Of a stretch of DNA of 64,000 nucleotides, positions 30,855 through 44,681 are shown in pieces. The position numbers were made by a program, and so were the translations under genes. This DNA is from Capsulimonadaceae bacterium. Its GTDB lineage: Bacteria; Armatimonadota; Armatimonadia; Armatimonadales; Capsulimonadaceae. The notes beneath the pieces were generated by a model. That model saw only the letters and a list, made by a program, of their open reading frames with translations, ran no database searches and was not told the DNA's origin. Each line of letters begins with the position of its first letter. Position 1 is the stretch's first letter. The stretch spans positions 2,272,001 through 2,336,000 of the forward strand of contig OZ244065.1 in the NCBI GenBank assembly GCA_965215505.1. The letters are read 5' to 3'.

Positions 30855-31454
30855 ATGAACCAGCCACCGAAAATCGCGGTCGTCGCCATGCAGGGCGACT
30901 TCCAGAAACACATTGACATGCTGACCCGGCTCGGGGCGGACGCCTACCCCGCCCGGACGCCCGGCGACATCGCACGGGCGGACGGGGTCATCCTGCCCGG
31001 CGGCGAGAGTACCACCATCGGCAAGCTGCTGGCCCGCTACGGCGTGGACGAAGCCATCCGGGAGTCGTCGGCCCAAGGCAAACCGATCTACGGCACCTGC
31101 GCGGGGCTGATCCTGCTGGCGCGCGGGATCGCCGAGGGGACCGGCGAGCGCGGCGGGCAGCCGACCCTGGGCCTGCTGGACGCCGTGGTCGCCCGCAACG
31201 CCTTCGGGCGGCAGGTGGACTCGTTCGAGACGGCCCTGGACATCCCCGCCCTGGGGCCGGACCCGCTGCGGGCGGTCTTCATCCGCGCCCCGTATGTCGC
31301 CGAGGCGGGGCCGAACGTCGAGACGCTGGCGACCTACGACGGTAAGACGGTCTTCGTCCGCCAGGGGACCATTTTAGGCAGCGCCTTCCACCCGGAGCTG
31401 ACCGACGACGACAGGCCGCACCGGCTGTTCCTGTCACTCGTGAAGCCCCGATGA
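30855..31454 (+). CDS. pdxT: pyridoxal 5'-phosphate synthase glutaminase subunit
   Basis: PGGESTT, GTCAGLILL, RNAFGRQVDSFE, FIRAP and FHPELT motifs. TGCTATAAT at 30837-30845. Confidence 0.96.
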   Translation: MNQPPKIAVVAMQGDFQKHIDMLTRLGADAYPARTPGDIARADGVILPGGESTTIGKLLARYGVDEAIRESSAQGKPIYGTCAGLILLARGIAEGTGERGGQPTLGLLDAVVARNAFGRQVDSFETALDIPALGPDPLRAVFIRAPYVAEAGPNVETLATYDGKTVFVRQGTILGSAFHPELTDDDRPHRLFLSLVKPR

Positions 31455-32680
31455 AGAACCGCCGATGGCTGGGAGTAGTAGCCGCCGCCCTGTGCCTGCT
31501 GGGCCTGCTGGCGTTCTGGCTCCGGCCCGGCCACACCCGCGCCGCCGAGAAGAAGGCGGACGCGCCGCTGAGGCTGCTCTGGACGCGGCCCATCGCCGGA
31601 TTCCGGGGGGCGGCGCTCTCGCCGCAGGGGGAGCTAGTCGCCCTCTCCAGCGGGGCCAAGGGGGCAGTCTCGCTCTGGCACTGGCGCACCCAGCCCGACC
31701 GGCCGCTTTGGGTGCATGCGGCCACCAACGCCTCGTCCGTGGACGTAAGCGCGGCCGGCTCCTTCGTGGTCGCCTGGGCACCGCTGGACCCGGCCCAGCC
31801 CGAACTCACCGTGCTGCGCGGCGATGACGGAGCGACGCTGTCGCACCGGACACTCGACGGCGCGGTGTGGGACGCCCAGCTTTCCGCCGACGGCACCTAT
31901 GCGGGCGTGGTCACGGGCGGCAAGTCGCTGTGGCTGTACACGCTCAGTGACCAGCCGTACCGGCCTGGGAAGGCTGAGAAGCGCATCCGCCAGTGGTCGT
32001 TGGGGGGCATCGGCGATTCGGTCGCCATCACCTCCCCCCCCGCCGGCTCCTACCTCGTCACCGGGGCTTGGGACGACAGCGGCATCGCCTGCTATACCCT
32101 GAGCGGGAAATGCCTGTGGCAGTACCCCGAGAAGTCACTCACGCGCCCCCGGCTGACCAACCGGCTGTTCACCGCCCAGCTTTCCGGCGACGGCCGGTAC
32201 GTCCTGGGGCTGTCCTACGGCAACGTCCGCGAGAGCGACCCGACCCTGTACCTGTGGCGTAGCGACGGCGGCGGCACCCCGCAGTGGAAGACGGAACTGG
32301 GCGACGACGCCTTCTACCCTACTGCCCAGATCACCCCGCAGGGCGGGTATGTGGCCGTCTCCTACCTGCATCAGATCGTGCGGGGGGACCGGAGCCTGTC
32401 CGAACACCAGATCCGCCTGCTGAACCACGACGGCAGCACGCGCTGGCAGGGCGGCGGCCTGCTCTTCTCCCCCACCCTCATCGCGCTGGCCCCCGACGGC
32501 GGCAGCGTCCTCGTCTCCGACGGCCAGCGCACTCTGTACGCCCTGGGCGGCAAGGACGGCCGCATTTTAGGAAGCTACCCGCAGCCCGGCCTGATCCGCC
32601 AGACGGCGCTCTCGGCGGACGGCCGCGTTCTGCTGGTCTACACGGGCGACGGGACCTTAAGTTTGTGGCGGGTCGGGTGA
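31451..32680 (+). CDS. membrane-anchored WD40/PQQ-like beta-propeller protein
   Basis: N-terminal TM and repeated LSADG/LSGDG/ITPQG/LAPDG blade turns. ATGA-coupled to pdxT. Confidence 0.8.
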   Translation: MKNRRWLGVVAAALCLLGLLAFWLRPGHTRAAEKKADAPLRLLWTRPIAGFRGAALSPQGELVALSSGAKGAVSLWHWRTQPDRPLWVHAATNASSVDVSAAGSFVVAWAPLDPAQPELTVLRGDDGATLSHRTLDGAVWDAQLSADGTYAGVVTGGKSLWLYTLSDQPYRPGKAEKRIRQWSLGGIGDSVAITSPPAGSYLVTGAWDDSGIACYTLSGKCLWQYPEKSLTRPRLTNRLFTAQLSGDGRYVLGLSYGNVRESDPTLYLWRSDGGGTPQWKTELGDDAFYPTAQITPQGGYVAVSYLHQIVRGDRSLSEHQIRLLNHDGSTRWQGGGLLFSPTLIALAPDGGSVLVSDGQRTLYALGGKDGRILGSYPQPGLIRQTALSADGRVLLVYTGDGTLSLWRVG

Positions 32681-32693
32681 GTCGGCGGCAGAC

Positions 32694-32724
32694 AAAAAGG
32701 AGGGCGGGGGAACCCCGCCCTCCT
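32694..32724 (-). terminator. intrinsic terminator between convergent units (ends the six-gene ABC operon)
   Basis: AGGAGGGCGGGG-GAA-CCCCGCCCTCCT with an A-run on the left. Confidence 0.75.
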
Positions 32725-32754: not shown

Positions 32755-33528
32755 CTACACCAGCACCGCCTCCGCCATGCTCGCCAGATGCTCGGCTTCG
32801 CCCGCCATGCCGCCGATGTTGAGCTTGATGTCGGCCCGGTTCTCGATCTTCTCGACTTTGCCGTCCTTGATCCAGATCACGCGGTCGGACACGTCCACCA
32901 TCTTGTAGTCGTGCGTGGCCGTGATGATCGTCACGCCCTGCTCCTTGTTGAGCCGGCGCAGCAGGGCGATGATCTCCTCGCCCGTCTTCGAGTCCAGGTT
33001 GCCCGTCGGCTCATCGGCAAGGATGATGCTGGGGTTATTCGCCAGCGACCGGGCGATGGCGACGCGCTGCTGCTGGCCGCCCGAGAGTTGCGAGGGCTTG
33101 TGGTGGTAGCGGTGGCCGAGGCCGACGATGTCCAGAAGCTCCATGCCCCGCGCGATGCCGTCGTCGGTGGGCTGGCCGGCGAAGATGGTCGGCAGGGTGA
33201 CATTTTCCAACGCAGTCATGACCGTAATCAGATTAAACGTCTGGAAGATGTACCCGATGGTGTGGCAGCGCAGGTAGGCGAGCTCCCCGGCGTCGAGCTG
33301 CGCCATGTCCACGTCGTTGATGAACACGCTGCCGCTGTCCGGCTTGTCCAGGCCGCCGATGGCGTTAAACAGGGTAGACTTGCCCGACCCGGACGGCCCC
33401 ATGATGGAGATGTACTCGCCGCGCCGGATGTCCACGTTGACTCCGTCGAGCGCGCGCAGCTTCTCTTCGCCGAGGGTAAAGACTTTGACCACGTCCTTGG
33501 TGCGGACGATGTATTCCGTTGCTGACAC
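32755..33528 (-). CDS. ABC transporter ATP-binding protein, LolD/MacB-type
   Basis: [42 protein letters not shown] and ATHD motifs. Confidence 0.95.
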
Positions 33529-33549
33529 TGATGATTTCTCCCGGTAGAA

Positions 33550-34179
33550 TTAGACTTCGGTGCGGAGGGCGGCGGCGGGCGGCATCTGGGCGGCGCGCTG
33601 GGCGGGCAGGAGGGCGGCGATAAGCGTTAGCAGCCCGCCGATGACGACGCAGCCCAGCAGCGTCCCGAAGATGACGCCGGCCGTCAGGTGCGTGACGCCG
33701 GGGTCCCAGCCGAGCGATGCCCAGCGGACCAGGAAGATGCCCAGGAAGCCCAGTATCCAGCCGGCGAACGAGGCCACGAAGCCCATGAAGATGGCTTCGA
33801 TGAGGAACAGGCGCACGATCAACGAGTTCAAAGCCCCCAGGCACTTCATCGTCCCGATCTCGCGGAACCGCTCCGAGACCGACATCAGCATCGAGTTCGT
33901 GATGCCGACCGTGCAGACCAGCAGGGCCATGATGACCAGCCAGACCTGCCGGTTAAAGGCCGCCGAGTTGTGGGACTCCAGCAGCGCGGTCACGCCGGAG
34001 AAGCACAGGAAGGCGATGCCGAGAAAGATGCCCGCGCCCGTGATCATGGACCGCCAGAAACGAATCTTAAGTGAGTTCATGGCGATCTGGATCGCCTTGC
34101 TCCACGGCAGGTTGATCTGCGTCTTAATGCCGCCGTCGCCTCTTGGTTTGCGGCCGTTGCCGCTGATCGCTACGGACAT
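33550..34179 (-). CDS. minimal FtsX-like ABC permease (4 TM, almost no periplasmic loop)
   Basis: GITNSMLMSVSERFREIGTMKCLGA, FLIEA and PAQRAAQMPPAAALR motifs. Confidence 0.9.
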   Translation of the reverse strand: MSVAISGNGRKPRGDGGIKTQINLPWSKAIQIAMNSLKIRFWRSMITGAGIFLGIAFLCFSGVTALLESHNSAAFNRQVWLVIMALLVCTVGITNSMLMSVSERFREIGTMKCLGALNSLIVRLFLIEAIFMGFVASFAGWILGFLGIFLVRWASLGWDPGVTHLTAGVIFGTLLGCVVIGGLLTLIAALLPAQRAAQMPPAAALRTEV

Positions 34180-34642
34180 TGGCTGTCCCCTTTCCTTTAT
34201 TCGTCCCAGTGGGCTTTGTCCCCGCTGGCTGAAGCCCGATCAACCCGCGCTGGGCGAACATCCGCATGGCCGTGATGACGCCCACCTCGCCCTGGCGGCG
34301 GTTCATCTTGTAGGTATCGCAGGCGTACCGGATGAGCTGGTCTACGCTGTGCTGCCCGTCGCAGCGCGCCCAGAGCTGGGCGTTGATCTCGTCCAGCTCA
34401 ATGGTGCGGGTCGCCGTGACGCGGAAGATGCGGGTCAGGATTCTGCCCACCCGGTCATCCCGGCGCGGGACGGTCAGCTTCGCGCCCGGCGTCTCGTCCT
34501 CGGCCGCCCTCATCTCCCAGACGATTTCGCGGCTGCGAACCGGCTTCAGCCCCAGCATCTCGCCGCGCGGCAGGCCCGCGCTCTCGCGCGCCAGGAACGG
34601 GATGGACTGACGCAGTGTGTTCAGCAGGCCTAACTGTGGCAC
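34124..34642 (-). CDS. PqqD-family / RiPP-recognition-element-like protein
   Basis: IELDEINAQLWARCDGQHSVDQLI...MFAQRGLI matches the L[DN]-x5-W-x-x-x-DG-x-x-[ST]V-x-x-[IL]...GL[IL] pattern. GTG start overlaps the upstream stop. Confidence 0.78.
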   Translation of the reverse strand: MPQLGLLNTLRQSIPFLARESAGLPRGEMLGLKPVRSREIVWEMRAAEDETPGAKLTVPRRDDRVGRILTRIFRVTATRTIELDEINAQLWARCDGQHSVDQLIRYACDTYKMNRRQGEVGVITAMRMFAQRGLIGLQPAGTKPTGTNKGKGTANVRSDQRQRPQTKRRRRH

Positions 34643-35634
34643 AGGGTACGCTCGACGATCTCGTCCACGACCTGCGGCTGCGGGCGGCGACTGAAGGACT
34701 GCACTAGGTGGACCTTGTTGCTCTCCGGACACTCCCAGATGCGCGCTTCAAAGTGGGTGGCGGGCATCTGGAGCCGGGTGATCTGCGGCACGGCATGGGA
34801 CATCCAGTAGGACAGACCCAGACGCCGCCCGGTCAGGGCCAGCGCGGGGTGGCCTTGGGCGGTCGCCTCGCGGGCCTCATACTTCAACTGCCCCTCTAAC
34901 GCCTGGTTCTTCTGCCGGAACCACTGATCTAAATACGCGCCCCGAAGCTGGACGTTTGCGACGCCCCACTGCTCCACGGAGAGTGAGTCCATGGAGCTGC
35001 CGCGCACGAACGGGAGCTGCACATAGATGTTCATGAGCTGCGGCTTGGTCTTGAGGGCGTAGTCGCTCGGCACCTGCGTGTGCAGGTCGTACAAAGACCA
35101 GACGTGCCAGTCAGTGTCCTCGGAGTGGCATTCCAAGGTCTGGAGGGCGTCGGCGGCTAGGGCGCCGAAGTCGTCCCGCGCGCCGCCGACGACCTGGGCG
35201 ATGACGACGCGCATGCACTCGGAGCAGTGCCAGATGCGCCCGATCGCCTTCCGGTCGGCCTTCCAGGTGAACGACCTCTGGCCGGTCCGCTCCGGGTGGC
35301 GCGCGTCCCGGACGGCTTTGGTCTGCGTCACGGTGGCGATCTTCTGCCGCTTCGCGCTCTTTTCGATGGAGGCGAGGTAGAGGGTGAGCCGCTTTTCCAG
35401 GTCGGCGTCCGTCACCTTGCCCTTGACCGGAATCCAGCGGACGTCCACGCCCAGGACGCCATGCGCCTGGAACTCGCTGTTGTCCAGGCGCAGGCTGCCG
35501 GCCTTGGCATCGCCGCCATAGGAAACCAGGTTCCAGGCGGGCGGGGCCAGCATGGTCAGCCCCTGCCAGCCCATCGTCTTCCAGCCCTTACGGGCGGGCG
35601 GGCGGCTTACTTCTTGTCTCACAAGTGTTGTCAC
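34630..35634 (-). CDS. soluble hypothetical protein with two-fold internal repeat
   Basis: 334-aa ORF with no TM or signal peptide. Paired motifs RIWHCSEC and RIWECPES. Confidence 0.8.
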   Translation of the reverse strand: MTTLVRQEVSRPPARKGWKTMGWQGLTMLAPPAWNLVSYGGDAKAGSLRLDNSEFQAHGVLGVDVRWIPVKGKVTDADLEKRLTLYLASIEKSAKRQKIATVTQTKAVRDARHPERTGQRSFTWKADRKAIGRIWHCSECMRVVIAQVVGGARDDFGALAADALQTLECHSEDTDWHVWSLYDLHTQVPSDYALKTKPQLMNIYVQLPFVRGSSMDSLSVEQWGVANVQLRGAYLDQWFRQKNQALEGQLKYEAREATAQGHPALALTGRRLGLSYWMSHAVPQITRLQMPATHFEARIWECPESNKVHLVQSFSRRPQPQVVDEIVERTLCHS

Positions 35635-35650
35635 GTTTTGATATACGACC

Positions 35651-37726
35651 CTAGAAGGGCAGGAAGTTCACGGTCTTCTGAATCAGGGCCAGGGCGATGG
35701 CGGACATGCCGATCAGGCCCGTGCCGCAGGCGAAGCCGGCCAGCAGGACCGGCGTGTAGAGCTGCCAGCGCTCCAGGCCGAACCGTTTGGCGAAGTAGTA
35801 GCGGCCCAAAAGCGCGCCGATGAATGTCGGGATCGTGTTGTGCGGGATGTTGCCGATGCCGCCGATGAAGCCGTAGAAGAACAGCAAGGGCCACTTGAAC
35901 AGCAAGGTCGCCCCGTACATCCCCCCCGCGACTAATGCGCCGATGCCGATGACCGGCCCCTTGATGGCGTGCAGCGCCCACGAGGCCCCGTTGCCGGAGT
36001 TGATCTGGGTCCAGATGGACAGGTTGATGACCGAGAGCGGCCAGAACTTCTGGGCGTAGGGGAACTGCGCCGAGGGGATGTCGTTCGTGTGCCACAGGAA
36101 GCCCCAGTAGACGAAGCTCGTGATGAGAATCAAGGGCAGCATCGTGAGTTCCAGCCAGAAGATGCTGGTGAACTTGGTCCCCGTCAGCTCGATCTCGCGG
36201 AATTTCTGCGCCTGCCCGCCGTAGTCGTTGAGCGGCAGCGGCGCGAACCAGATGTCCGGCTTGGTGTAGCCGCTCCTCAAAACCACCGCCTGGTTCAAGA
36301 ACGGGAACGTGACGCCCTGGCCGGTCAGCCCGATCAGGCGGGCGGAGACGTAGGAGTTCAGCGGGGTCCAAACCAGGCCGTAAAAGATGACGATGGCGAT
36401 GGGGAAGGCCGGGACGAGTTGGTGGTTCAGGAGGACATACCCGCAGGTCGCCGCGAACCACGCCCCCACGGCGGCCCACCAGGGGAAGTCGCCGCGCCCC
36501 TGCGGCACTTTCCCCAGGCTCCCGCGCTGGGCGGACCGCTCGGTCCCGCGCGACTTGAGGACCGTGAGCAGGACGGCGAGCAGGCCGAGGGCGGCGATGG
36601 TGAGCTGGGTCCCGATGCTGAACGACATCCAGAAGTCGAAGTCAATGGAGGCCTTTGTCTGGATCGTCGGCGAGCCGGGGACCCAGTGCGGGAAGATGCT
36701 ATTTTGGCCGTTGACCAGGTGCGCCTGTCCGAGATGGTACATGATCGGGTTGGCGACGATCTGGGTGGCGATGGAGGAGATGAAGCTGCCCAGTACGATG
36801 GAGTAGGGCAGGATGAACCCGAACATGACCAGGCCCAGGTCGGGGTTGTAGCCGGTCAGGGCCGTCGGCAGGATGCGCTCGGTGTTTGGCGTCAGGTCCA
36901 TGAACGGGATCGGCAGGATGGTGACGGGCTTGCCCAGGGCGACGCCGGTGAAGATCGGGATCGCGAGGTAGAAGAAGCCGAAGATCAGGCCGACGATGGT
37001 GCCGGTGGAGAAGACCTGCCAGCGCCACGAGTCCTCCTTGGTGGAGGCCTCGGCCAGCGCGGTCGCGCCCGAGGCGGCGATGGAGGCGAACGGGAAGGGC
37101 AGCCGCTCCACGTCCGACGTGATCCGGAACAGCATGTAGCCCAGGCCCATCCACTTCATCCGGTCGAAGACCTGGCCGAACAGGATGATGGCAATGGGGA
37201 AGAGCCAGGCGGTGTCCCACAGGCTGCGGTGCGCGTAGGCCGGCGAGCCGGGCTGCGGACCGATCCAGGCAGGCAGCAGGTGGACGACGCCCACCATGGC
37301 GGGCGACTGCATGATGTACTGGGTCGCGATGAGCGCGCCGAACGGCCCGCCGGAGATGCCCGGCAGCCCGCCGAAGCCGGACCCGGCCAGAGCGCCGGCC
37401 ATGTAGAACAGGCAGTAGATCTCCTGTCGCTTGAGCGGAAGGAACGAGCGCCGGGCGATCTCGGAGAACAGGACGATCGTCACCCACTGGGCGGCCGCGC
37501 CCAGCCCCTGCCCGGCGACCAGGCCGAGGTAGATCGAGCCGGGGAGCATGATGAGGCAGACGAAGAGCATGCCCACCACGACCTTGCCGGTGAAGCCGTT
37601 CTCGAACTGTATCTGTTGGCCGCCCTCGTCGTTAGCCGTGTCTTCGGACCGCTCGCGCGCCGATTCGATGTCGTCCGGGGGCGCGGCACCGCGCCCGCGC
37701 TTCGTTTTTTGTTCCAGTGATGCCAC
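35651..37726 (-). CDS. OPT/YSL-like multipass membrane protein (putative peptide transporter)
   Basis: 691 aa with roughly 15 or more hydrophobic segments. LKRQE and DVERLPFP motifs are reminiscent of OPT-superfamily proteins. Substrate unknown. Confidence 0.72.
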   Translation of the reverse strand: MASLEQKTKRGRGAAPPDDIESARERSEDTANDEGGQQIQFENGFTGKVVVGMLFVCLIMLPGSIYLGLVAGQGLGAAAQWVTIVLFSEIARRSFLPLKRQEIYCLFYMAGALAGSGFGGLPGISGGPFGALIATQYIMQSPAMVGVVHLLPAWIGPQPGSPAYAHRSLWDTAWLFPIAIILFGQVFDRMKWMGLGYMLFRITSDVERLPFPFASIAASGATALAEASTKEDSWRWQVFSTGTIVGLIFGFFYLAIPIFTGVALGKPVTILPIPFMDLTPNTERILPTALTGYNPDLGLVMFGFILPYSIVLGSFISSIATQIVANPIMYHLGQAHLVNGQNSIFPHWVPGSPTIQTKASIDFDFWMSFSIGTQLTIAALGLLAVLLTVLKSRGTERSAQRGSLGKVPQGRGDFPWWAAVGAWFAATCGYVLLNHQLVPAFPIAIVIFYGLVWTPLNSYVSARLIGLTGQGVTFPFLNQAVVLRSGYTKPDIWFAPLPLNDYGGQAQKFREIELTGTKFTSIFWLELTMLPLILITSFVYWGFLWHTNDIPSAQFPYAQKFWPLSVINLSIWTQINSGNGASWALHAIKGPVIGIGALVAGGMYGATLLFKWPLLFFYGFIGGIGNIPHNTIPTFIGALLGRYYFAKRFGLERWQLYTPVLLAGFACGTGLIGMSAIALALIQKTVNFLPF

Positions 37727-37774
37727 GGGGGCATGTCTCCTTGTCGAAGCCTCGTCGAAACAGGGCGGGAAAAA

Positions 37775-37800
37775 GGGGCGAACACGAGGTTCGCCCCTAC
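37775..37800 (-). repeat. GTAG-type REP-like element inside the operon
   Basis: GTAGGGGCGAACCTCGTGTTCGCCCC on the minus strand. Confidence 0.75.
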
Positions 37801-37810
37801 GGGGCAGGCG

Positions 37811-40800
37811 TTACAGGGCGGGCGCGACCGCCGCCGTCTCGCCCGCAGCGACCGGGATGGGGGCCGTGCCGACGCCCTCGCCGATCTCCAGGTAGCGTTC
37901 GCGTTGGTCCGCCGTCAGGGTGCGCCAGATGAGGAACTGCTTGCGGACGACGTTCAGGAAGCGGCGGTTGACGCGCTTCCAGTTGGACACGTCGCCCGAA
38001 ACGCGCGTCAGGGTCAGGTGGACGGCGTAGACGTCTTCCAAGTCCGTCGGGGCGGTGTCGAGCGAGATGGTCTGGGACACGCCCAGGTCGAACGGCGCGA
38101 GCCAGATGCGGCCGGTCAGCCGGTAGCCCGTGCCGCCCTCCATCATCTCGCGGCCCGTGCGGATGTCCTGGGTCAAGAAGTCGCCCACGGACTGTTCCTC
38201 GTAAGCCCGGAACCACTCGGCCAGGAACTGGTTGATGCCGGGGGCCTGCGCGCCCGCCACGGCGAAGGGCAGGGAGAGCTTCCAGACGTCGCCGTCCGGC
38301 TCGGGCACTTTCCACGTCCGGTCCACGGCGGGCGTCGCCACCTCGGACGCCTTGCGGGCGGGGAAGATGGTGGACAATAAGACGACCGCGACGACCAGGC
38401 CGATGGCGAGTTCGGCGGACGTGGACGAGAAGTTCAGGTACAGGCCGGGCAGGATATGGAAGACGGAGATCGCCTTGGCCAAGCCCTGGCCGATCAGGTA
38501 GCCCGACACGGCCCCGATGATGCCATAGACCAAAGCCTCGGCGATGAACAGCATGGCGATGTTGGACGGCGACAATCCAATGGAGGAGAAGATCGCGATC
38601 TCCTTGACCCGCTCGAAGACCGACCCGAGCATCGTGTTCAGGACGATCAGGGCGGCGATCAGGATGGGGATGATGATGTTGATCAACCCCTGCGACGAGG
38701 TCGCCCCGATGGCCGAGAAGCGGTGGTTGTCGGTCGAGTCGATGACGGTCCCGTTGGCCTGCTTTTTGAAGCCGCCCGCATACAGGTTCAGGTCCAGGCG
38801 CGGCATCAGGTCTTGCAGCTCGGTGTAGACGGTCGGCCCGGACCCCATGTTGATTCCGACCGATTCGAGGCTGCCGCCGAGGTTGATCAGGGTCGTGTAC
38901 GGCACATACAGGACGGCGTCCGGGTCCAAGTGCAGATATTCCTGGAAGCCCTGGGAGGCCGCCGACTGCGAGGACGACGAGGACGAAGAGCTGCTCTGGC
39001 TCTGCTGGGCCTGGTAGTCCACGGGCGTCAGGGTTTCGTTGTCCAGGTCCTTGATGGCCTTGAACTTGTCCGGGTCCATGATGCCGATGACGAGGTACGG
39101 CACGCCGCTGAAGTTGACCGTCACCCGGCCCACGTCACTCGGGGCGATCTGGAGGCTGGCCGCGACCGCCTTGGGGACGACGGCGGCGTAGGTGTCGGTG
39201 GCATTGAACCAGCGGCCCTCTGGCCTGCCGTCCGGCCCGGTCATCAGGGCTTTGTCCATGCCCGTGACCTGCGCCTCCTGCGGCGTGAAGCCGGTGACGC
39301 CTTTGACGTCGGTGCCGAGGTGCGCGCGGGTCAGGTGCAGGAAGGTGGTCTGGCCGGGCGTCGTGCCGTAGAACCAGGCGCGCGGGGCGACCGGGTAGCG
39401 GCTGCCGTACTCGTCGTTGAGCAGCCGGTAGGCCGTGAAGTCCAGGGTGTCCCAGGTCGGCAGCCGGAGCAGCAGGCCCTTGTAGGCGGCGACGCCCGGC
39501 GCGGACACGTCGTTGTAGCGGATGGTGTTGACGATCGACGTGAACGACAGTACGGTGAAGGTCAGCAGCACGAGTGTCAGGCAGGTCAGCAGCGTCCGTT
39601 CTTTGCGCCGGCGCATGTTGGAGATGCCCAGGGCGAAGGCGGCGAAGGCGATGGAGGCCTTGCCCACGTCGGCCTTGTGGACGCCGGACACGGACTTGTT
39701 GAACTGCTTGAGCTGTTCTTCGAACTTGCCCCACACCAGCAGTGAGACGATGACGGACAGGGCCAGCATGACGAACGCGATCAGGATGATCAGCGGGTTG
39801 ACCGAGCCGATGGCAAAGGCCGGATGGATCTGCGAGAAGACGATGAAGACAGCCAAAAAGATGCCGAAGGCCGCCCCGAGCTGCCGCTTCAGGTCGGAGA
39901 AGCCGAAAAGCAGCCGCTCCAGGAAGTAGGCGAAGGGGATCAAGAGGAACAGGTAGAAGATGACCCCCTGGACCACGTCGTTCGCCGTCTGCTGCACCTG
40001 CGGGTAGACGCGGGCCTCGTTCGCCCAGGCCTGACGGCTGTAGGCGTCGAACAGCTCGTAATCTTTCTTCTGGTAGGCCTCCAACGCCTGCTGAATCTCG
40101 CCCGCCGCCTGGTCGTGCAGGAACGTCACGGGGTTGGTCTTGTCGCCGAGTTGGACGATGCGGAACCGGGCCAGATTCTTGATTCGGAAGTCGTCCAGGC
40201 TCCACATGTCCTTGGCGACGCGAAGGGAGGTGTTGTTGATCGCGCCGTAGCGGACGATGTCGTCCGGGTTGTTCGGGTCGGGCGGCTTGTTGTAGTTCGC
40301 CAGCCGGGCGGAGGGTACGCCGACGGCGTAGCCGATGCCGGTGGGGTGGTCGGGCGTGGAGTTGATGAGCAGGAACCGGATGGCCGGGCCGTCGCCCGCG
40401 ATGACCTTGAGCCGCGTCGTGGTGTCCGGAGGCGAGAACAGCGTCAGCAGGCCCTGGCCGCGCTGGATGCCGTACTGGCGCGGCTCGCTGTCCGAAGCGC
40501 CGTCGAAGACGCTGATGTCGTTGACGCGCTTCAGGGCACCCTGGTTGACCAGCTCGTAGATGGTGGTGGCGACGCACGGGAAGACGATGACCTGGGTCTG
40601 TTTGAAGTCGCTGGTCAGGTCGAACTCGATGGGGTAGTTGGCCGCGCCGTTGACCCCACGGTCCGGCGCGTAGTCCACGTCCCCCCGGTTGCCCAGGCTG
40701 TCGTCGGCCGGGTGCAGCCGGAAGGCGTCCAGGTGCATCTTCCCGTCCGGCGCGAACCGAAGCCCGCCGCCGTTGGAGATGACCAGGGGCATGCCAACGA

Positions 40801-42637
40801 AGTCGAAGGCCGCCGTGCCGGGGGCGGTCGCCTGAATCAAGTTGGTGCGGACGCCGGTCGAACTCGTCCACTGGCAGCCGACCACGGCCAGAGTGTCCGT
40901 GATGGGCTTGTCGGGGACGAAGTTGGTCTTGGGGTCGAACAGCAGGACGCGGCCATGCAGGCGGCTGTAGCCGAGCCTCAGCCCTTGCCGGGTCCAGGCG
41001 GGCCAGGTGGGGACGGGCATCAGCGAGGCGGCGCTGTCGGGCGTGATGGCGTTCGGGTCGTTGGTGTCGTTGAGGACGTGCCAGTATTCGCAGGCGAGGG
41101 TCTTGGTCTGGGTGGCGAGGTTGACGACGTTGACCGTGGGCAGGGTGTCTGCGGGGGTGTCCACCTTCTGCCGGGCGTCGTCTGTGGTGGCGAAGGTGAT
41201 GCCCTTGCCGCCCGCCATCGTCGCCGTCTCGGCGTCAAAGTCGAAAAAGCCGGGGAGGTAGTTGCGCCAGCCCTTGCCGTTCGCGCCGTTGACGCCGTCG
41301 GCGAAGGCGACGGCGGGGTCGAACCCCAACACCTGCCCGGCCTTCTCGGCGTTCTCGCGCATCGTCCGCCCGATGTCCGAGAAGTCGCTCTGGATGTCCT
41401 CGCGGTAGTCGTAGAAGTAGCCCTTGTAGAAGACGCCCACGCTGCCCGTCTGCGAGGACAGGTCCAGGCCGGAGAACAGCAGGAGGTCGGTCCGGTCAGG
41501 CAGGCCGGCGTGGAAAACGCCGTGCTTCACCGTGTCGAGCGTGGAGACGGGCCGCCAGTCGTCCAGGTGCTTGTCTACGAAGGTCCGCGCCCCCTGGATG
41601 CCCAGAAAGTGTGCGCCGCTGGCGACGAACTGGACTGTCCGCTTGGGTGGGTGCGCTTTGAAGGCGCGCGCCAGTTCCAGCATGGCCGCGATGCCATCCG
41701 CCGCGTCCGCACCGGGTGCCTGGGTCGGGACGATGGACATGGAATCGAAATACGACTCGATGACGATGTTCTGGCCGGCCAGCGGCCCCGTTCCGGGGAT
41801 GGTGCCGACGATGTTGGCGGCGTCGCGGGTCTGCCAAGGGTTGTCGCAGGTGAGGTGGACCGCAAAGCCCGGCGTCGTCAGGGCCGCGGACTGGAGCAGG
41901 GCGGCGTCGCCGCGCGTGATCCAAAACCGGGGCATGTTGATAGGCAGGCGCAGGAACTTCAGCTCGCCCTCGCCGCGCTGGATCTGGTCCGGCTCGACGA
42001 AGATGATGGCCTTCGCGCCCAGCCGGGCGGCGTTCTGCCAGTCCACGCCGCAGTTGAAGTCCAGCAGGACGATACTGCCCTCGACGGGCTTGCCCCGGAA
42101 GGCGCGCAGGTCGCCCCGCCCGGCGTAGATCAGGGGGCCGTCAATGCCCGAGGCCGGCAGCGTGGAGGTGCGGACGAGGTTCGGCCAGAGCGGCTGCAAG
42201 GCCAGCGGCCGGGCCAGGCCCGCGCCCTGCACGGACGCGCCGTTGTCGGCGGGGACGGTGACGGGGAAGGTCTCCTCGTGGACGTTCGCCGCGCCGAGTA
42301 TCTGCTTCATCTGGGCCAGCACATAGGCACGCGCCTGGTCGCCGCCCGGCGACCCGGCCATGCGGGAGTGGGCGATGACGGGTGCCCCGGCGGGCTGGTT
42401 GGGGACGGAGTAGTGGATGCCCGACAGGTCGGCGATGGTTCTGGACAATCGGGCGGGGCTGACGCCCCCGGCCAGGGCGACGTAGTTCCTGGCCGCCTCG
42501 GGGTCTACTTTAATCTTGGGCTGGTCGGCGCGCGCCCCGGTCAAACACGGCATCAGGGCCAGGGCCATGAGCAGGCACCGGCAGAAGAAGAAGCAGGAAC
42601 GGGAACGCGCGCCGGGAGCGCGCTGGAAATCCTTCAT
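37811..42637 (-). CDS. giant fusion: signal peptide + M28-like/PA ectodomain (metal ligands substituted) + TM bundle + MacB/FtsX permease + C-terminal soluble domain
   Basis: RMAGSPG, PA-like GPLIYAGRG...EGSIVLL, NIVGTIPG and GIAAMLELAR motifs, then SNMRRRKERTLLT, NTMLGSVFERVKEIAIFSSIG and FPARKAS permease motifs. Confidence 0.88.
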   Translation of the reverse strand: MKDFQRAPGARSRSCFFFCRCLLMALALMPCLTGARADQPKIKVDPEAARNYVALAGGVSPARLSRTIADLSGIHYSVPNQPAGAPVIAHSRMAGSPGGDQARAYVLAQMKQILGAANVHEETFPVTVPADNGASVQGAGLARPLALQPLWPNLVRTSTLPASGIDGPLIYAGRGDLRAFRGKPVEGSIVLLDFNCGVDWQNAARLGAKAIIFVEPDQIQRGEGELKFLRLPINMPRFWITRGDAALLQSAALTTPGFAVHLTCDNPWQTRDAANIVGTIPGTGPLAGQNIVIESYFDSMSIVPTQAPGADAADGIAAMLELARAFKAHPPKRTVQFVASGAHFLGIQGARTFVDKHLDDWRPVSTLDTVKHGVFHAGLPDRTDLLLFSGLDLSSQTGSVGVFYKGYFYDYREDIQSDFSDIGRTMRENAEKAGQVLGFDPAVAFADGVNGANGKGWRNYLPGFFDFDAETATMAGGKGITFATTDDARQKVDTPADTLPTVNVVNLATQTKTLACEYWHVLNDTNDPNAITPDSAASLMPVPTWPAWTRQGLRLGYSRLHGRVLLFDPKTNFVPDKPITDTLAVVGCQWTSSTGVRTNLIQATAPGTAAFDFVGMPLVISNGGGLRFAPDGKMHLDAFRLHPADDSLGNRGDVDYAPDRGVNGAANYPIEFDLTSDFKQTQVIVFPCVATTIYELVNQGALKRVNDISVFDGASDSEPRQYGIQRGQGLLTLFSPPDTTTRLKVIAGDGPAIRFLLINSTPDHPTGIGYAVGVPSARLANYNKPPDPNNPDDIVRYGAINNTSLRVAKDMWSLDDFRIKNLARFRIVQLGDKTNPVTFLHDQAAGEIQQALEAYQKKDYELFDAYSRQAWANEARVYPQVQQTANDVVQGVIFYLFLLIPFAYFLERLLFGFSDLKRQLGAAFGIFLAVFIVFSQIHPAFAIGSVNPLIILIAFVMLALSVIVSLLVWGKFEEQLKQFNKSVSGVHKADVGKASIAFAAFALGISNMRRRKERTLLTCLTLVLLTFTVLSFTSIVNTIRYNDVSAPGVAAYKGLLLRLPTWDTLDFTAYRLLNDEYGSRYPVAPRAWFYGTTPGQTTFLHLTRAHLGTDVKGVTGFTPQEAQVTGMDKALMTGPDGRPEGRWFNATDTYAAVVPKAVAASLQIAPSDVGRVTVNFSGVPYLVIGIMDPDKFKAIKDLDNETLTPVDYQAQQSQSSSSSSSSSQSAASQGFQEYLHLDPDAVLYVPYTTLINLGGSLESVGINMGSGPTVYTELQDLMPRLDLNLYAGGFKKQANGTVIDSTDNHRFSAIGATSSQGLINIIIPILIAALIVLNTMLGSVFERVKEIAIFSSIGLSPSNIAMLFIAEALVYGIIGAVSGYLIGQGLAKAISVFHILPGLYLNFSSTSAELAIGLVVAVVLLSTIFPARKASEVATPAVDRTWKVPEPDGDVWKLSLPFAVAGAQAPGINQFLAEWFRAYEEQSVGDFLTQDIRTGREMMEGGTGYRLTGRIWLAPFDLGVSQTISLDTAPTDLEDVYAVHLTLTRVSGDVSNWKRVNRRFLNVVRKQFLIWRTLTADQRERYLEIGEGVGTAPIPVAAGETAAVAPAL

Positions 42638-42850
42638 TGGCGGGTCTATCCTTGGTGGGCGGCCCGGCGCAGCACCGTCGGGCGCGCGGGCCGCTAAGGT
42701 CAAGCGGACGTTAAGAGGGCCAAATCGCAAGCACATTCATAATATCACAAACCCACAAAAAAGGCAATAGGCCAAAACGCGGGGAAGCGGCAGCCCTCCG
42801 GCCACACAACAAAGCGCCCCGCCGGCGCTTGCGCCGGGGTGGGTGCTTTG

Positions 42851-42859
42851 TGCTATACT
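42851..42859 (+). promoter_or_regulatory. extended -10 TGCTATACT placed for a leaderless gmk transcript
   Basis: 6 nt upstream of GTG 42866 with no SD sequence in between. Confidence 0.6.
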
Positions 42860-42865
42860 CTCTCC

Positions 42866-43501
42866 GTGACTACCTCTACAAAACCCGGTGACACCGGCCT
42901 GCTCGTCGTCGTCTCCGGCCCGTCCGCCGTCGGCAAGGATACCGTCCTGGATGCCCTGCTCTCCCGCGCCGACCTGCCGCGCCCCGTCCAGAAGTGCGTT
43001 ACCACCACGACCCGCGCGCCGCGCCCGAAGGACGGCGGGCGGGGGATGGAGGAGGACGGCGTGGACTACCACTTCGTCAGCCCCGCCCGCTTCAACGAGA
43101 TGGTGGCCCACGACGAGCTGCTGGAATACGCCGAGTACGCGGACAACTACTACGGGACGCCGCGCGCCTGGGTGTCCGAGCGGCGTCGGCTCGGGATCGA
43201 CGTCATCCTCAAGATCGAGGTCCAGGGCGGCCTGATCGTCCAGGAGAAGGCCCCCGACGCCGTGCTGGTCTTCTTGCAGCCTCCGTCGCTGGAGGAGCTG
43301 GAGCGCCGCCTGCGCCACCGCCGGACGGACAGCGAGGACCAGATCGCCAAGCGGCTGCTGCACGCCCGCAAGGAGATGGCCCAGCGCCCCCACTACGACT
43401 ACGCCGTGACCAACGACAGCGTGGAAGACGCCGTGGACGCCATCCGGGCCGTCCTGCGCGCGGAACACTGCCGCATTCATAACGGGGCCGCCGATGTCTG
43501 A
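42866..43501 (+). CDS. gmk: guanylate kinase
   Basis: SGPSAVGK, TTRAPR, DGVDYHFVS, NYYGTP and PPSLEELERRL motifs. Confidence 0.96.
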   Translation: MTTSTKPGDTGLLVVVSGPSAVGKDTVLDALLSRADLPRPVQKCVTTTTRAPRPKDGGRGMEEDGVDYHFVSPARFNEMVAHDELLEYAEYADNYYGTPRAWVSERRRLGIDVILKIEVQGGLIVQEKAPDAVLVFLQPPSLEELERRLRHRRTDSEDQIAKRLLHARKEMAQRPHYDYAVTNDSVEDAVDAIRAVLRAEHCRIHNGAADV

Positions 43502-44681
43502 GAACCCTAAGCGCGTCGTGTTAGGCGTATCCGCCTCCATCGCCGCCTACAAGGCCGCCGACCTTGCGAGCCGGCTGGTCAAGAGCGGCGTCGAGGTCTT
43601 CCCGGTGATGACGGCGGGGGCCGCGAACTTCGTCCAGCCCGCGACGTTCCGCGCCTTGACCCACCACCCCTGCCCCATTGACACGTTTGAAGAGCCGTTC
43701 CCCGGCGAGATCGCCCACATCTGGCTCGCGCGCAACTGCGACCTGTTCGTCATCGTGCCCGCCTCCATGAACGTCATCGCCCGGCTCGCCAACGGGCTGG
43801 CCGAGGACATGCTGACTGCCTCGGCGATGGCCTGCACCGCGCCCATCCTGCTCGCGCCGGGCATGAACACGGGCATGTGGAACAACCCGGCCACGCAGGC
43901 GAATTTGGCGAAGCTGCGCGACTACGGCTACTACTTCATCGAGCCGACGACCGGGCGGCTGGCCTGCCGGACGGAGGGCGTGGGCCGAATGGCCGACGTG
44001 GAAACGATCTTCAGCGCCATCCAGGAGATGCTGGCCCGTTCGGGATCGTGGGCGGGGCGGAACGTCCTGGTGACGGCGGGGCCGACGCGCGAGCCGCTGG
44101 ACCCGGTCCGCTTCCTGTCTAACCGGTCATCGGGCAAGATGGGCTACGCGCTGGCCGAAGCCGCCCGCGTGCGCGGGGCGAGCGTCACGCTGGTTTCCGG
44201 TCCGACGGCTTTGGCCGCGCCGGGGGGCGTGGAGTTCGTCCGCGTGGAGACGGCGGCGCAGATGCGGGACGCCGTGCTGCCGCGCGCCGCCGGGGCAGAC
44301 CTGATACTGGCCGCCGCCGCCGTCGCGGACCACCGGCCCGCCGAGTTCGCGGCGCAGAAGGTCAAAAAAGATGCCGGGGCCTATGCCCTGCCGCTGGCAT
44401 CGAACGACGACATCCTGGCCGCCCTGGGGCGCGCAAAGCGGGCAGGCCAGACATTGGTCGGGTTCGCGGCGGAAACCGAGAACCTCCTTGACAACGCGCG
44501 GGGCAAGCTGACGGCCAAGAACCTGGACTGGATCGTCGCTAACGACGTGACGGCGGAGGGGGCGGGCTTCGACGGGGACACGAACGTCGTCACCCTGCTC
44601 GGGCGCGGCGGGGGCGAGACTGCCCTGCCGCTGCTGACCAAGCGCGAGGTCGCCGAGCGGATACTGGACGCGGTGGGCTGA
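43494..44681 (+). CDS. coaBC: phosphopantothenoylcysteine decarboxylase/ligase
   Basis: SIAAYKA, APGMNTGMW, GRLAC, TAGPTREPLDPVRFLSNRSSGKMG and VGFAAET motifs. Confidence 0.97.
   Translation: MSENPKRVVLGVSASIAAYKAADLASRLVKSGVEVFPVMTAGAANFVQPATFRALTHHPCPIDTFEEPFPGEIAHIWLARNCDLFVIVPASMNVIARLANGLAEDMLTASAMACTAPILLAPGMNTGMWNNPATQANLAKLRDYGYYFIEPTTGRLACRTEGVGRMADVETIFSAIQEMLARSGSWAGRNVLVTAGPTREPLDPVRFLSNRSSGKMGYALAEAARVRGASVTLVSGPTALAAPGGVEFVRVETAAQMRDAVLPRAAGADLILAAAAVADHRPAEFAAQKVKKDAGAYALPLASNDDILAALGRAKRAGQTLVGFAAETENLLDNARGKLTAKNLDWIVANDVTAEGAGFDGDTNVVTLLGRGGGETALPLLTKREVAERILDAVG

Follow-up and report, generated by a model that had tools for sequence, protein, structure and literature searches.

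A conserved six-gene cluster of Armatimonadota encodes a putative type VII ABC mechanotransducer together with a predicted OPT-fold permease

A cluster of six co-oriented minus-strand genes, here called A to F, spans positions 32755-42637 of the stretch analyzed, 64,000 nucleotides (nt) of Capsulimonadaceae bacterium contig OZ244065.1 (the window). The cluster is real and conserved, and it is a variant of ATP-binding cassette (ABC) systems of type VII that is undescribed in the literature found. The six genes appear to encode one conserved membrane system, whose products may form a six-protein complex. Our preferred reading, which is held tentatively, is that a type VII ABC mechanotransducer works with permeases of the OPT superfamily, most likely in the uptake of oligomeric nutrients; the direction and the substrate are what we infer. 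The genes, and the domains of the largest one, are as follows.

37811..42637, minus strand: gene A, a permease of 1608 amino acids (aa) (Pfam, hydropathy, sequence matches in the PDB, alignments)
41900-42139, minus strand: PA domain of A (Pfam, weak)
41534-41815, minus strand: M28-like domain of A, in which other residues take the canonical metal and catalytic positions (aligned with YwaD, 2ek8 and AAP)
39968..41533, minus strand: rest of the A ectodomain, 522 aa (no Pfam match at E <= 1)
38342..39967, minus strand: membrane module of A, with three extra transmembrane (TM) helices, a linker, FtsX TM1, MacB_PCD and FtsX TM2-4 (Pfam, hydropathy, PDB)
37814..38341, minus strand: cytoplasmic domain at the C-terminus of A (53 columns invariant across 36 sequences)
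35651..37726, minus strand: gene B, a 691-aa multipass permease (AlphaFold2 (AF2) fold, Foldseek, hhalign)
34630..35634, minus strand: gene C, a 334-aa cytoplasmic protein with tandem PsbP/Mog1-like domains (alignment, AF2, fold searches)
34124..34642, minus strand: gene D, a 172-aa cytoplasmic protein of the PqqD family, resembling a RiPP (ribosomally synthesized and post-translationally modified peptide) recognition element (RRE), with a basic tail (Pfam)
33550..34179, minus strand: gene E, a 209-aa FtsX permease with four TM helices (Pfam, NCBIfam, hydropathy)
32755..33528, minus strand: gene F, a 257-aa ABC ATPase of the MacB/LolD/FtsE type (Pfam, NCBIfam)

Open reading frame (ORF) calling and translation gave the six genes without internal stops, in the co-oriented layout that an earlier sequence-only reading of the window had described. 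The genes are closely spaced, with gaps of 84 nt between A and B, 16 nt between B and C and 21 nt between E and F, and with overlaps of 13 nt between C and D and 56 nt between D and E. Upstream, gmk (42839-43501, plus strand; Pfam 1e-43) and then coaBC (43494-44681, plus strand) are divergent from A, and a beta-propeller gene (31451-32680, plus strand) converges on the cluster from downstream. Therefore, the unit was taken to be the six genes. The longest ORF of A is 37811-42736. Its start was placed at 42637 since the ATG there is preceded by AAGGA and lies downstream of a promoter-like site, which would put the transcript start beside codon 42736. The ORF of D is 34124-34732, and the GTG at 34642 is its likely start because orthologues overlap C by 13-16 nt.

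A profile search with B gave 164 relatives in contigs from one genome per species, and the best 80 of the 164 were kept. The labels of these 80 loci are of an Armatimonadota lineage in 73 cases, "bacterium" or "uncultured bacterium" in 6 and Janthinobacterium in 1. By tblastn with the six proteins and ORF assignment, 61 of the 80 loci proved to have A to F all on one strand and in this order. Contig ends cut 18 of the remaining loci, and one (L051) has no detectable D. Of 301 genomes sampled from the phylum, 249 have B, as do 206 of the 252 that are of high quality; in the genome of the window it is single-copy. No flanking genes are common beyond close relatives, the largest flank cluster consisting of 16 loci, and conserved flanking genes were dropped as a clue to function for this reason.

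Relatives of B are also found far outside this group. A search of 1.84 billion proteins with the B profile gave 1081 cluster representatives at E <= 1e-3, with a second tier of relatives 28% identical to the B of the window. Eighty distant metagenomic loci with a second-tier B were fetched and scanned with profiles from the Armatimonadota genes. In 54 of these loci, an A-type gene on the strand of B ends at most 300 nt upstream of it. A lies elsewhere in 14, less than 3 kb is available upstream of B in 11, and in one (L103) there is room but no A was found. The distant A-type genes carry the ectodomain, the FtsX module and the C-terminal domain; one of the proteins is matched by the Pfam Nicastrin model (2.8e-5). 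A second large FtsX permease is present in 8 of the 80 loci. In all six of the distant loci that were scanned with Pfam, a gene of the DUF6785/DUF6784 families adjoins the A-B pair, directly before A in five and after B in one, and the further neighbors are glycoside hydrolase (GH) family GH130, a sulfatase, TrmB, M20 and DUF5700. The co-occurrence of all six genes that the sequence-only reading had put forward thus holds in one order across Armatimonadota, but the distant loci keep mainly A and B adjacent. Judging by these profile matches, A and B form the conserved core, and the accessory genes either differ or escape the profiles.

Some loci within Armatimonadota carry additional genes. In 12 Chthonomonadales loci, an extra gene of about 280 aa lies between B and C (L074 12251-13087; L077 12083-12949). 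Its product has N-terminal TM helices, no Pfam match and a C-terminal motif ending in ...LY.DGHV.AV.P, which we take to be the H-X9-DG tail of DUF1559 and pseudopilin-like proteins. L074 is the locus of Chthonomonas calidirosea, a cultured member of the phylum. In some Chthonomonadales a periplasmic DUF2092 protein is encoded between A and B (L077 8825-9982; L055 5283-6329), with a redoxin fusion in L077. DUF2092 is presumably LolA-like and would then echo LolCDE-LolA. The locus with the Janthinobacterium label (L015), from a Janthinobacterium lividum metagenome-assembled genome, has a full Armatimonadota-type cluster with a B that is 82% identical, and its label is probably a binning error in the public record.

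Gene A begins with a signal anchor, which is followed by about 850 aa outside the membrane (the PA/M28-like part and the 522 aa after it), the three TM helices, the cytoplasmic linker and FtsX TM1. After FtsX TM1 come a MacB-type periplasmic core domain, FtsX TM2-4 and a cytoplasmic C-terminal domain of 176 aa. This topology is self-consistent by hydropathy. The Pfam matches of A are PA (E 1.3e-3, below the cut-off), Peptidase_M28 (4e-11, covering only the first half of the family, profile positions 1-93 of 193), MacB_PCD (PF12704; 8e-7, 29.9 bits with a cut-off of 27) and FtsX (1e-13), and the large periplasmic domain expected between TM1 and TM2 is there. The membrane module has sequence matches in the PDB to YtrF, LolF, MacB and LolC. 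The C-terminal domain belongs to no Pfam family and is retained in the distant metagenomic A proteins too.

The sequence-only reading had called the M28-like domain a pseudo-peptidase, and the alignment of its residues bears this out. Compared with the active aminopeptidases YwaD, 2ek8 and AAP, A has Tyr in place of the His ligand and His-Phe in place of Glu-Glu, with the bridging Asp kept. The same positions were compared in 60 sequences, the window A and 59 orthologues, 1 of which has a gap at these columns. The His ligand position holds Tyr in 53 of the 60 and Phe in 5, the catalytic Glu position holds His in 59, and the ligand Glu position holds Phe in 53; the bridging Asp position holds Glu in 42 and Asp in 17. 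This comparison covers the part of the profile matched by Pfam; the two C-terminal ligands lie outside it. An active M28 enzyme would have its co-catalytic zinc ligands and its catalytic Glu, and A has lost three of the canonical residues. Based on the alignment, the site is dead as an M28 peptidase, yet conserved in its substituted form. The weak sequence matches of the M28 region include nicalin (E 4e-4).

E and F complete the motor. E matches FtsX at 2.7e-16, and PF02687 is above its cut-off in both A and E. In E the periplasmic domain is replaced by an 8-residue loop, which makes the A/E pair asymmetric. F matches ABC_tran at 4.7e-33. The NCBIfam models that score best with it are LolD, MacB, DarD and FtsE, and F stays below the equivalog cut-off of each (LolD, 231 bits against 307.75; FtsE, 199 against 264.85; darobactin-export ATPase, 220 against 375). 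A and E score 12-43 bits with NCBIfam cut-offs of 225-966, and thus none of the three is an equivalog of LolCDE, FtsEX or MacB. Just five genes of the genome have an FtsX domain. From their domain matches, A and E are a predicted asymmetric FtsX-type permease pair and F their ATPase, that is, a type VII ABC mechanotransducer, in agreement with the assignments made for these three genes in the sequence-only reading. A few lineages have a long E of 431-543 aa (e.g., L036 13441-14733 and L073 8513-10141); the E of L036 carries two SLBB domains in its outer loop instead of a MacB periplasmic domain.

B has no Pfam, NCBIfam or PDB match by sequence, and the fold search alone was informative. The AF2 model of B (predicted local distance difference test (pLDDT) 79, predicted TM-score (pTM) 0.79) matched barley YS1 (7wst/7wsr) with a Foldseek E of 2e-10 and TM-scores of 0.59/0.66, and the next match had an E of 1e-2. 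The identity of B to YS1 is 13%. PF03169 (OPT) matched none of 14 aligned Armatimonadota B proteins, including that of the window, at E <= 10, and the whole genome holds no Pfam OPT gene. Two of the distant B relatives, L090 (7e-17) and L159 (1.2e-17), pass the Pfam OPT cut-off. The predicted OPT/YSL fold and this transitive homology place B in the OPT superfamily, so the OPT-likeness noted earlier from the sequence stands at the level of the fold.

A comparison of B with DUF6785/DUF6784 (PF20581 and PF20580) by hhalign gave a probability of 97.4 and an E of 1.5e-11 over 534 columns; the window B itself does not match PF20581. By this profile alignment, B is homologous to the DUF6785/DUF6784 permeases. 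There are ten DUF6785/DUF6784 genes in the genome, none of them near the cluster. DUF6785 is present in 251 of the 301 genomes, and its distribution follows that of B as a pattern rather than a statistic: 249 genomes have both, 2 have DUF6785 only, none has B only and 50 have neither. The two with DUF6785 only are G184 (80% complete) and G209 (89% complete). The same pattern is seen in the families that are partly positive (f11, 12/34; f22, 12/17; f19, 5/7; f6, 2/6), where both searches gave identical positives. Within genus g26, with 7 of 11 genomes positive, the near-complete G009 and G052 lack both, and the closed G145 and G206 have both. B and DUF6785 are unlinked, lying 24 kb to 0.6 Mb apart (0.5-0.6 Mb in G145 and G206). 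That unlinked genes are present together or absent together suggests that B and DUF6785 are functionally tied.

Six of the ten DUF6785 genes adjoin catabolic genes on the same strand. The neighbors are GH125, with a divergent GH130 beyond, at one gene; GH2-GH53-GH92-cupin at another; an FGGY kinase, an aldolase and a dehydrogenase at a third; and, at the remaining three, an esterase, a TIM-barrel isomerase-like protein with an aldo-keto reductase, and DUF2961-DUF2961-GH116. Two further DUF6785 genes are located beside M16 and M1 peptidases.

Several side observations were made as well. In a first look, in which only four candidates per genome were scored, DUF6785 candidates numbered 58 in G131, 51 in G045, 48 in G011 and 47 in G176, compared to one to three matches of B. 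At L166 11120-11965 (genome 916620-917465) there is a member of the MbnB/TglH/ChrH family, which acts in RiPP precursor modification (Pfam 8e-9). It is about 2.3 kb from a DUF6785 paralogue, on the opposite strand and past three unassigned or weakly assigned genes. At L172 (genome 300000-315600) there are six co-oriented genes, five of which are GH genes: GH29, GH51-like, GH10+SASA, GH3 and GH31+PA14. The sixth has no family assigned, and the run ends beside an IS1 transposase fragment.

C and D are cytoplasmic proteins. C has no TM segment by hydropathy and no Pfam or NCBIfam match, and its AF2 model has a pLDDT of 93. Residues 15-171 of the model matched CyanoP 2xb3 (Z 15.0, rmsd 2.8, 141 aligned) and residues 175-333 matched Tsi3 4luq (Z 11.2). 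Other fold matches were Mog1 (Z 12.2), the two-domain immunity protein TplEi 5h7y, the Eag-type chaperone SciW (Z 8.9), DcrB and LpqN. C therefore has the PsbP/Mog1/DUF1795-like fold twice in tandem, a shared fold that by itself shows no function. C137, C140, H170, C302 and C332 are conserved in the orthologue alignment, and these Cys and His residues may be a metal site. D, with its trimmed start, matched PqqD (PF05402) at 23.5 bits with a cut-off of 23.4. All 37 aligned sequences, the window D and 36 orthologues, matched PqqD at E <= 0.01, with a best value of 7e-15, as expected from the PqqD-like identity given to D at the outset.

A complex prediction took C, the C-terminal domain of A, and D; its score hung on C, and no contacts were reported for it. 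For C and D, the interface score ipSAE was 0.60 (0.79, 0.59 and 0.60 in the runs) compared to 0.00 for the best control, at a mark that is reached by 116 of 157 solved complexes and 2 of 215 mismatched pairs and where a pass of 0.60 or lower is more often wrong. The score was lost when C was replaced. At least 31% of contacts are common to the runs, and the partner pLDDT is at least 61. These predictions lend weak support to a contact between C and D. The sequence-only reading had envisaged interfaces among the products of the cluster, and C-D would be one of them.

The following mechanism could connect these parts. Two copies of F would join the A/E pair in the way that LolD joins LolC and LolE, and as F turns over ATP the outer domains of A would move, in the manner of MacB, LolCDE and FtsEX. 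The dead-peptidase head of A would capture an oligomeric substrate, peptide-like or glycan-like, outside the membrane. It would then hand the substrate to an OPT-fold permease for import, to B in cis and to the DUF6785/DUF6784 paralogues in trans. B would import constitutively, and the DUF6785 proteins would serve the substrates of their own operons. C and D would form a cytoplasmic adaptor on the inner face. The OPT/YSL fold relatives of B are importers. We lean towards uptake because of these relatives and because the paralogues of B are located in catabolic operons and co-occur strictly with the cluster. A bolder version is that the single-copy motor is a common extracytoplasmic loader or energizer that acts in trans for B and for the DUF6785/DUF6784 permeases of glycan and peptide catabolic operons; we consider this rather doubtful.

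There are several points that weigh against uptake. To our knowledge, no type VII ABC system imports, and all of them act outward or on the envelope. An export client would go at least equally well with cytoplasmic PqqD-like and chaperone-like proteins. Beside the distant A-B pairs, C was found in just 2 and F in 3 of the 80 loci and the short E and D were rarely detected, with profiles that were built from Armatimonadota and may be too narrow for distant C, D, E and F. The related genomes in the comparison of B and DUF6785 are not independent, and the co-occurrence count overstates the number of events. The surroundings of the DUF6785 genes are also less distinctive than they appear. Among nine control loci placed at even distances, three contain a GH family and one more contains NAGPA and CBM9 (a tenth control, L173, was dropped since it overlaps a DUF6785 locus). 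Window-level GH enrichment around the DUF6785 genes was rejected, as it is not above background in this GH-rich genome. Since the window-level GH content matches the control, the same-strand adjacency alone carries weight. Finally, conventional importers are present, with 26 BPD_transp_1 and 43 MFS_1 matches in the genome. Because of these, the system is not needed to explain sugar uptake, and the idea that the DUF6785 proteins are the sole importers was rejected.

An outward envelope machine is a different, and in our judgment unlikely, explanation. C and D would hold a peptide or hydrophobic client in the cytoplasm, B would move it across the membrane, and A-E-F would extract it from the outer leaflet and present it on the pseudo-peptidase head, like LolCDE or YbbAP-TesA. 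Such a role would agree with the characterized type VII systems, all of which are known to work outward, and with the membership of D in the PqqD family, whose members bind peptides. SciW, DcrB and LpqN among the fold relatives of C, the periplasmic DUF2092 protein (with or without redoxin) of some Chthonomonadales and the SLBB domains of some E proteins could be read in the same way, and a near-universal, single-copy system suits a housekeeping role. However, no precursor peptide gene or modifying enzyme was found in or beside the cluster, where the 5' region is only the divergent gmk, and we know of no OPT-family exporters. The strict co-occurrence with the DUF6785 permeases of catabolic operons would also be left unexplained. 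An outward direction, with binding in the cytoplasm, movement through the membrane and action outside, was what the sequence-only reading had proposed, and it gained no specific support here. A narrower form of export, a RiPP or peptide-antibiotic cluster in which D recognizes the leader peptide and A-E-F exports in the manner of MacB, is hardly credible. D does match PqqD and F reaches 220 bits with the darobactin-export ATPase model (cut-off 375), but the cluster and its flanks in the window hold no precursor and no radical-SAM, YcaO, lasso or other modifying enzyme, and the fixed gene order in 249 of 301 genomes of the phylum is unlike a biosynthetic island.

Two other roles would keep B as an importer or as a client. 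The system could be a regulator like FtsEX, in which the dead-peptidase domain switches an extracytoplasmic hydrolase, for example in cell-wall turnover, and B takes up the released peptides. The architecture is analogous, since FtsEX with the degenerate LytM protein EnvC is likewise a type VII motor with a dead metallopeptidase fold, and an OPT-type importer suits peptide recycling. Against this, neither the cluster nor its flanks contain a conserved hydrolase gene, and the paralogous permeases are mostly found with glycoside hydrolases and sugar enzymes, not with cell-wall genes; we consider this role improbable. Slightly harder still to credit is a biogenesis or quality-control factor that inserts, assembles or removes B and the DUF6785 proteins, with C-D as a chaperone of cytoplasmic or hydrophobic segments. 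It would explain why one machine co-occurs strictly with many unlinked paralogous permeases. Nicalin, which is a dead M28 protein of the eukaryotic multipass translocon, is a match of the M28 region of A, and the fold of C includes chaperones of TM segments. Still, this role is argued by analogy alone, bacteria insert such proteins by SecYEG and YidC, and a system with such a large ectodomain and a MacB periplasmic domain would rather act outside the membrane. Uptake with OPT-superfamily permeases thus remains the reading that we prefer.

Candidate signals for transcription were found at both ends of the cluster and in its largest gap.

42739..42767, minus strand: promoter-like site, TTGCCT, 17 nt and an extended -10 TG-n-TATTAT (consensus match only)
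37775..37797, minus strand: REP-like (repetitive extragenic palindromic) hairpin, GGGGCGAAC-6-GTTCGCCCC, then TTTTT, in the 84-nt A-B gap
32698..32724, minus strand: intrinsic-terminator-like hairpin, 12 pairs and a T run, 3' of F

The promoter-like site, which lies upstream of A, includes TGATATTAT at 42747-42739. This is the sequence picked out in the sequence-only reading, and it does match the consensus, but it is weak evidence alone, with 2 such sites in 12 kb compared to 1.0 expected. The single terminator picked out there corresponds to the hairpin with a T run. The label of REP for the element in the A-B gap is also fair, since the hairpin has 8 copies with variable loops in the 6.18-Mb genome and a reversed control pattern has 1. 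This hairpin could be an attenuator of transcription between A and B or a REP-type element. A small precursor ORF upstream of A was considered and rejected, as the 5' region is the divergent gmk. A 267-aa minus-strand ORF at 42737-43540, which abuts the longest ORF of A, is the antisense of gmk and not a gene. Four ice metatranscriptome runs contain just 6-7% of the sampled sequence words. Their contigs cover parts of F, B and A and the B/C junction (35416-35886) at about 90% identity and therefore come from relatives; an RNA library may hold DNA, and neither a single transcript nor expression in this organism follows from these contigs.

The cluster has its closest parallels in MacB, LolCDE, FtsEX-EnvC and YbbAP-TesA, with which it shares FtsX-type four-helix permeases, a MacB periplasmic core (in A) and a separate ATPase of the MacB/LolD/FtsE type. 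Its asymmetric permease pair resembles LolC/LolE, and its dead metallopeptidase fold as an outer effector resembles FtsEX-EnvC. In contrast to these type VII systems, its pseudo-peptidase has the PA/M28 fold instead of LytM and is fused into the permease, A has three TM helices more and ends in a conserved cytoplasmic domain, and the partner permease E has no periplasmic domain. In addition, the motor of the cluster is always encoded with an OPT-fold permease, and PqqD-like and PsbP-like proteins belong to the operon.

The other components also resemble and differ from what is known. B is similar to the OPT/YSL protein YS1 over its whole-chain fold, but the window B lacks a PF03169 match and shares just the 13% identity given above. 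We know of no OPT protein that works with an ABC motor. Unlike B, which is single-copy and has its fixed place behind A, the DUF6785 genes occur in multiple copies spread over catabolic loci. D has a family match to PqqD and the RREs, but it has no RiPP precursor or enzyme partner. It differs from them further by an N-terminal extension of about 75 aa, its basic tail and its weakly supported predicted partner, C. Nicalin, nicastrin and the transferrin receptor share with A a PA and M28 fold that has lost its catalytic residues and is a binding module in a membrane complex. The sequence matches to these dead M28 proteins are weak, and in A the domain is fused to an ABC permease and its substituted site is conserved. 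One single-copy energizer that serves many separately encoded transporters is also found in TonB-ExbBD and in MsiK of the actinobacterial sugar ABC importers. The cluster has no homology to either, and it is co-occurrence alone that suggests that its motor acts in trans.

Full-text literature searches, in the partial texts that they returned, gave no description of this gene combination or of DUF6785/DUF6784; the sequence-only reading likewise had known no characterized system of this composition. In E. coli, just four kinds of type VII ABC systems are well understood, which act in efflux, lipoprotein release, cell-wall hydrolase control and lipid extraction.

A whole phylum that has been poorly studied carries the system described here as standard equipment, and the A-B core is met again in metagenomic lineages that are very distant. 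The system unites parts that are not known to cooperate, namely a mechanotransducer with a dead peptidase, a permease of the OPT fold and a PqqD-like protein. It also gives a first functional handle on DUF6785 and DUF6784, Pfam families that are multi-copy in these genomes. One motor for many OPT-fold permeases is the bolder reading, and a testable one. If it is true that the motor serves many permeases, this would be a new principle of nutrient uptake, with an architecture that has no described precedent, and it would bear on how Armatimonadota and their ecological peers feed on polymers.

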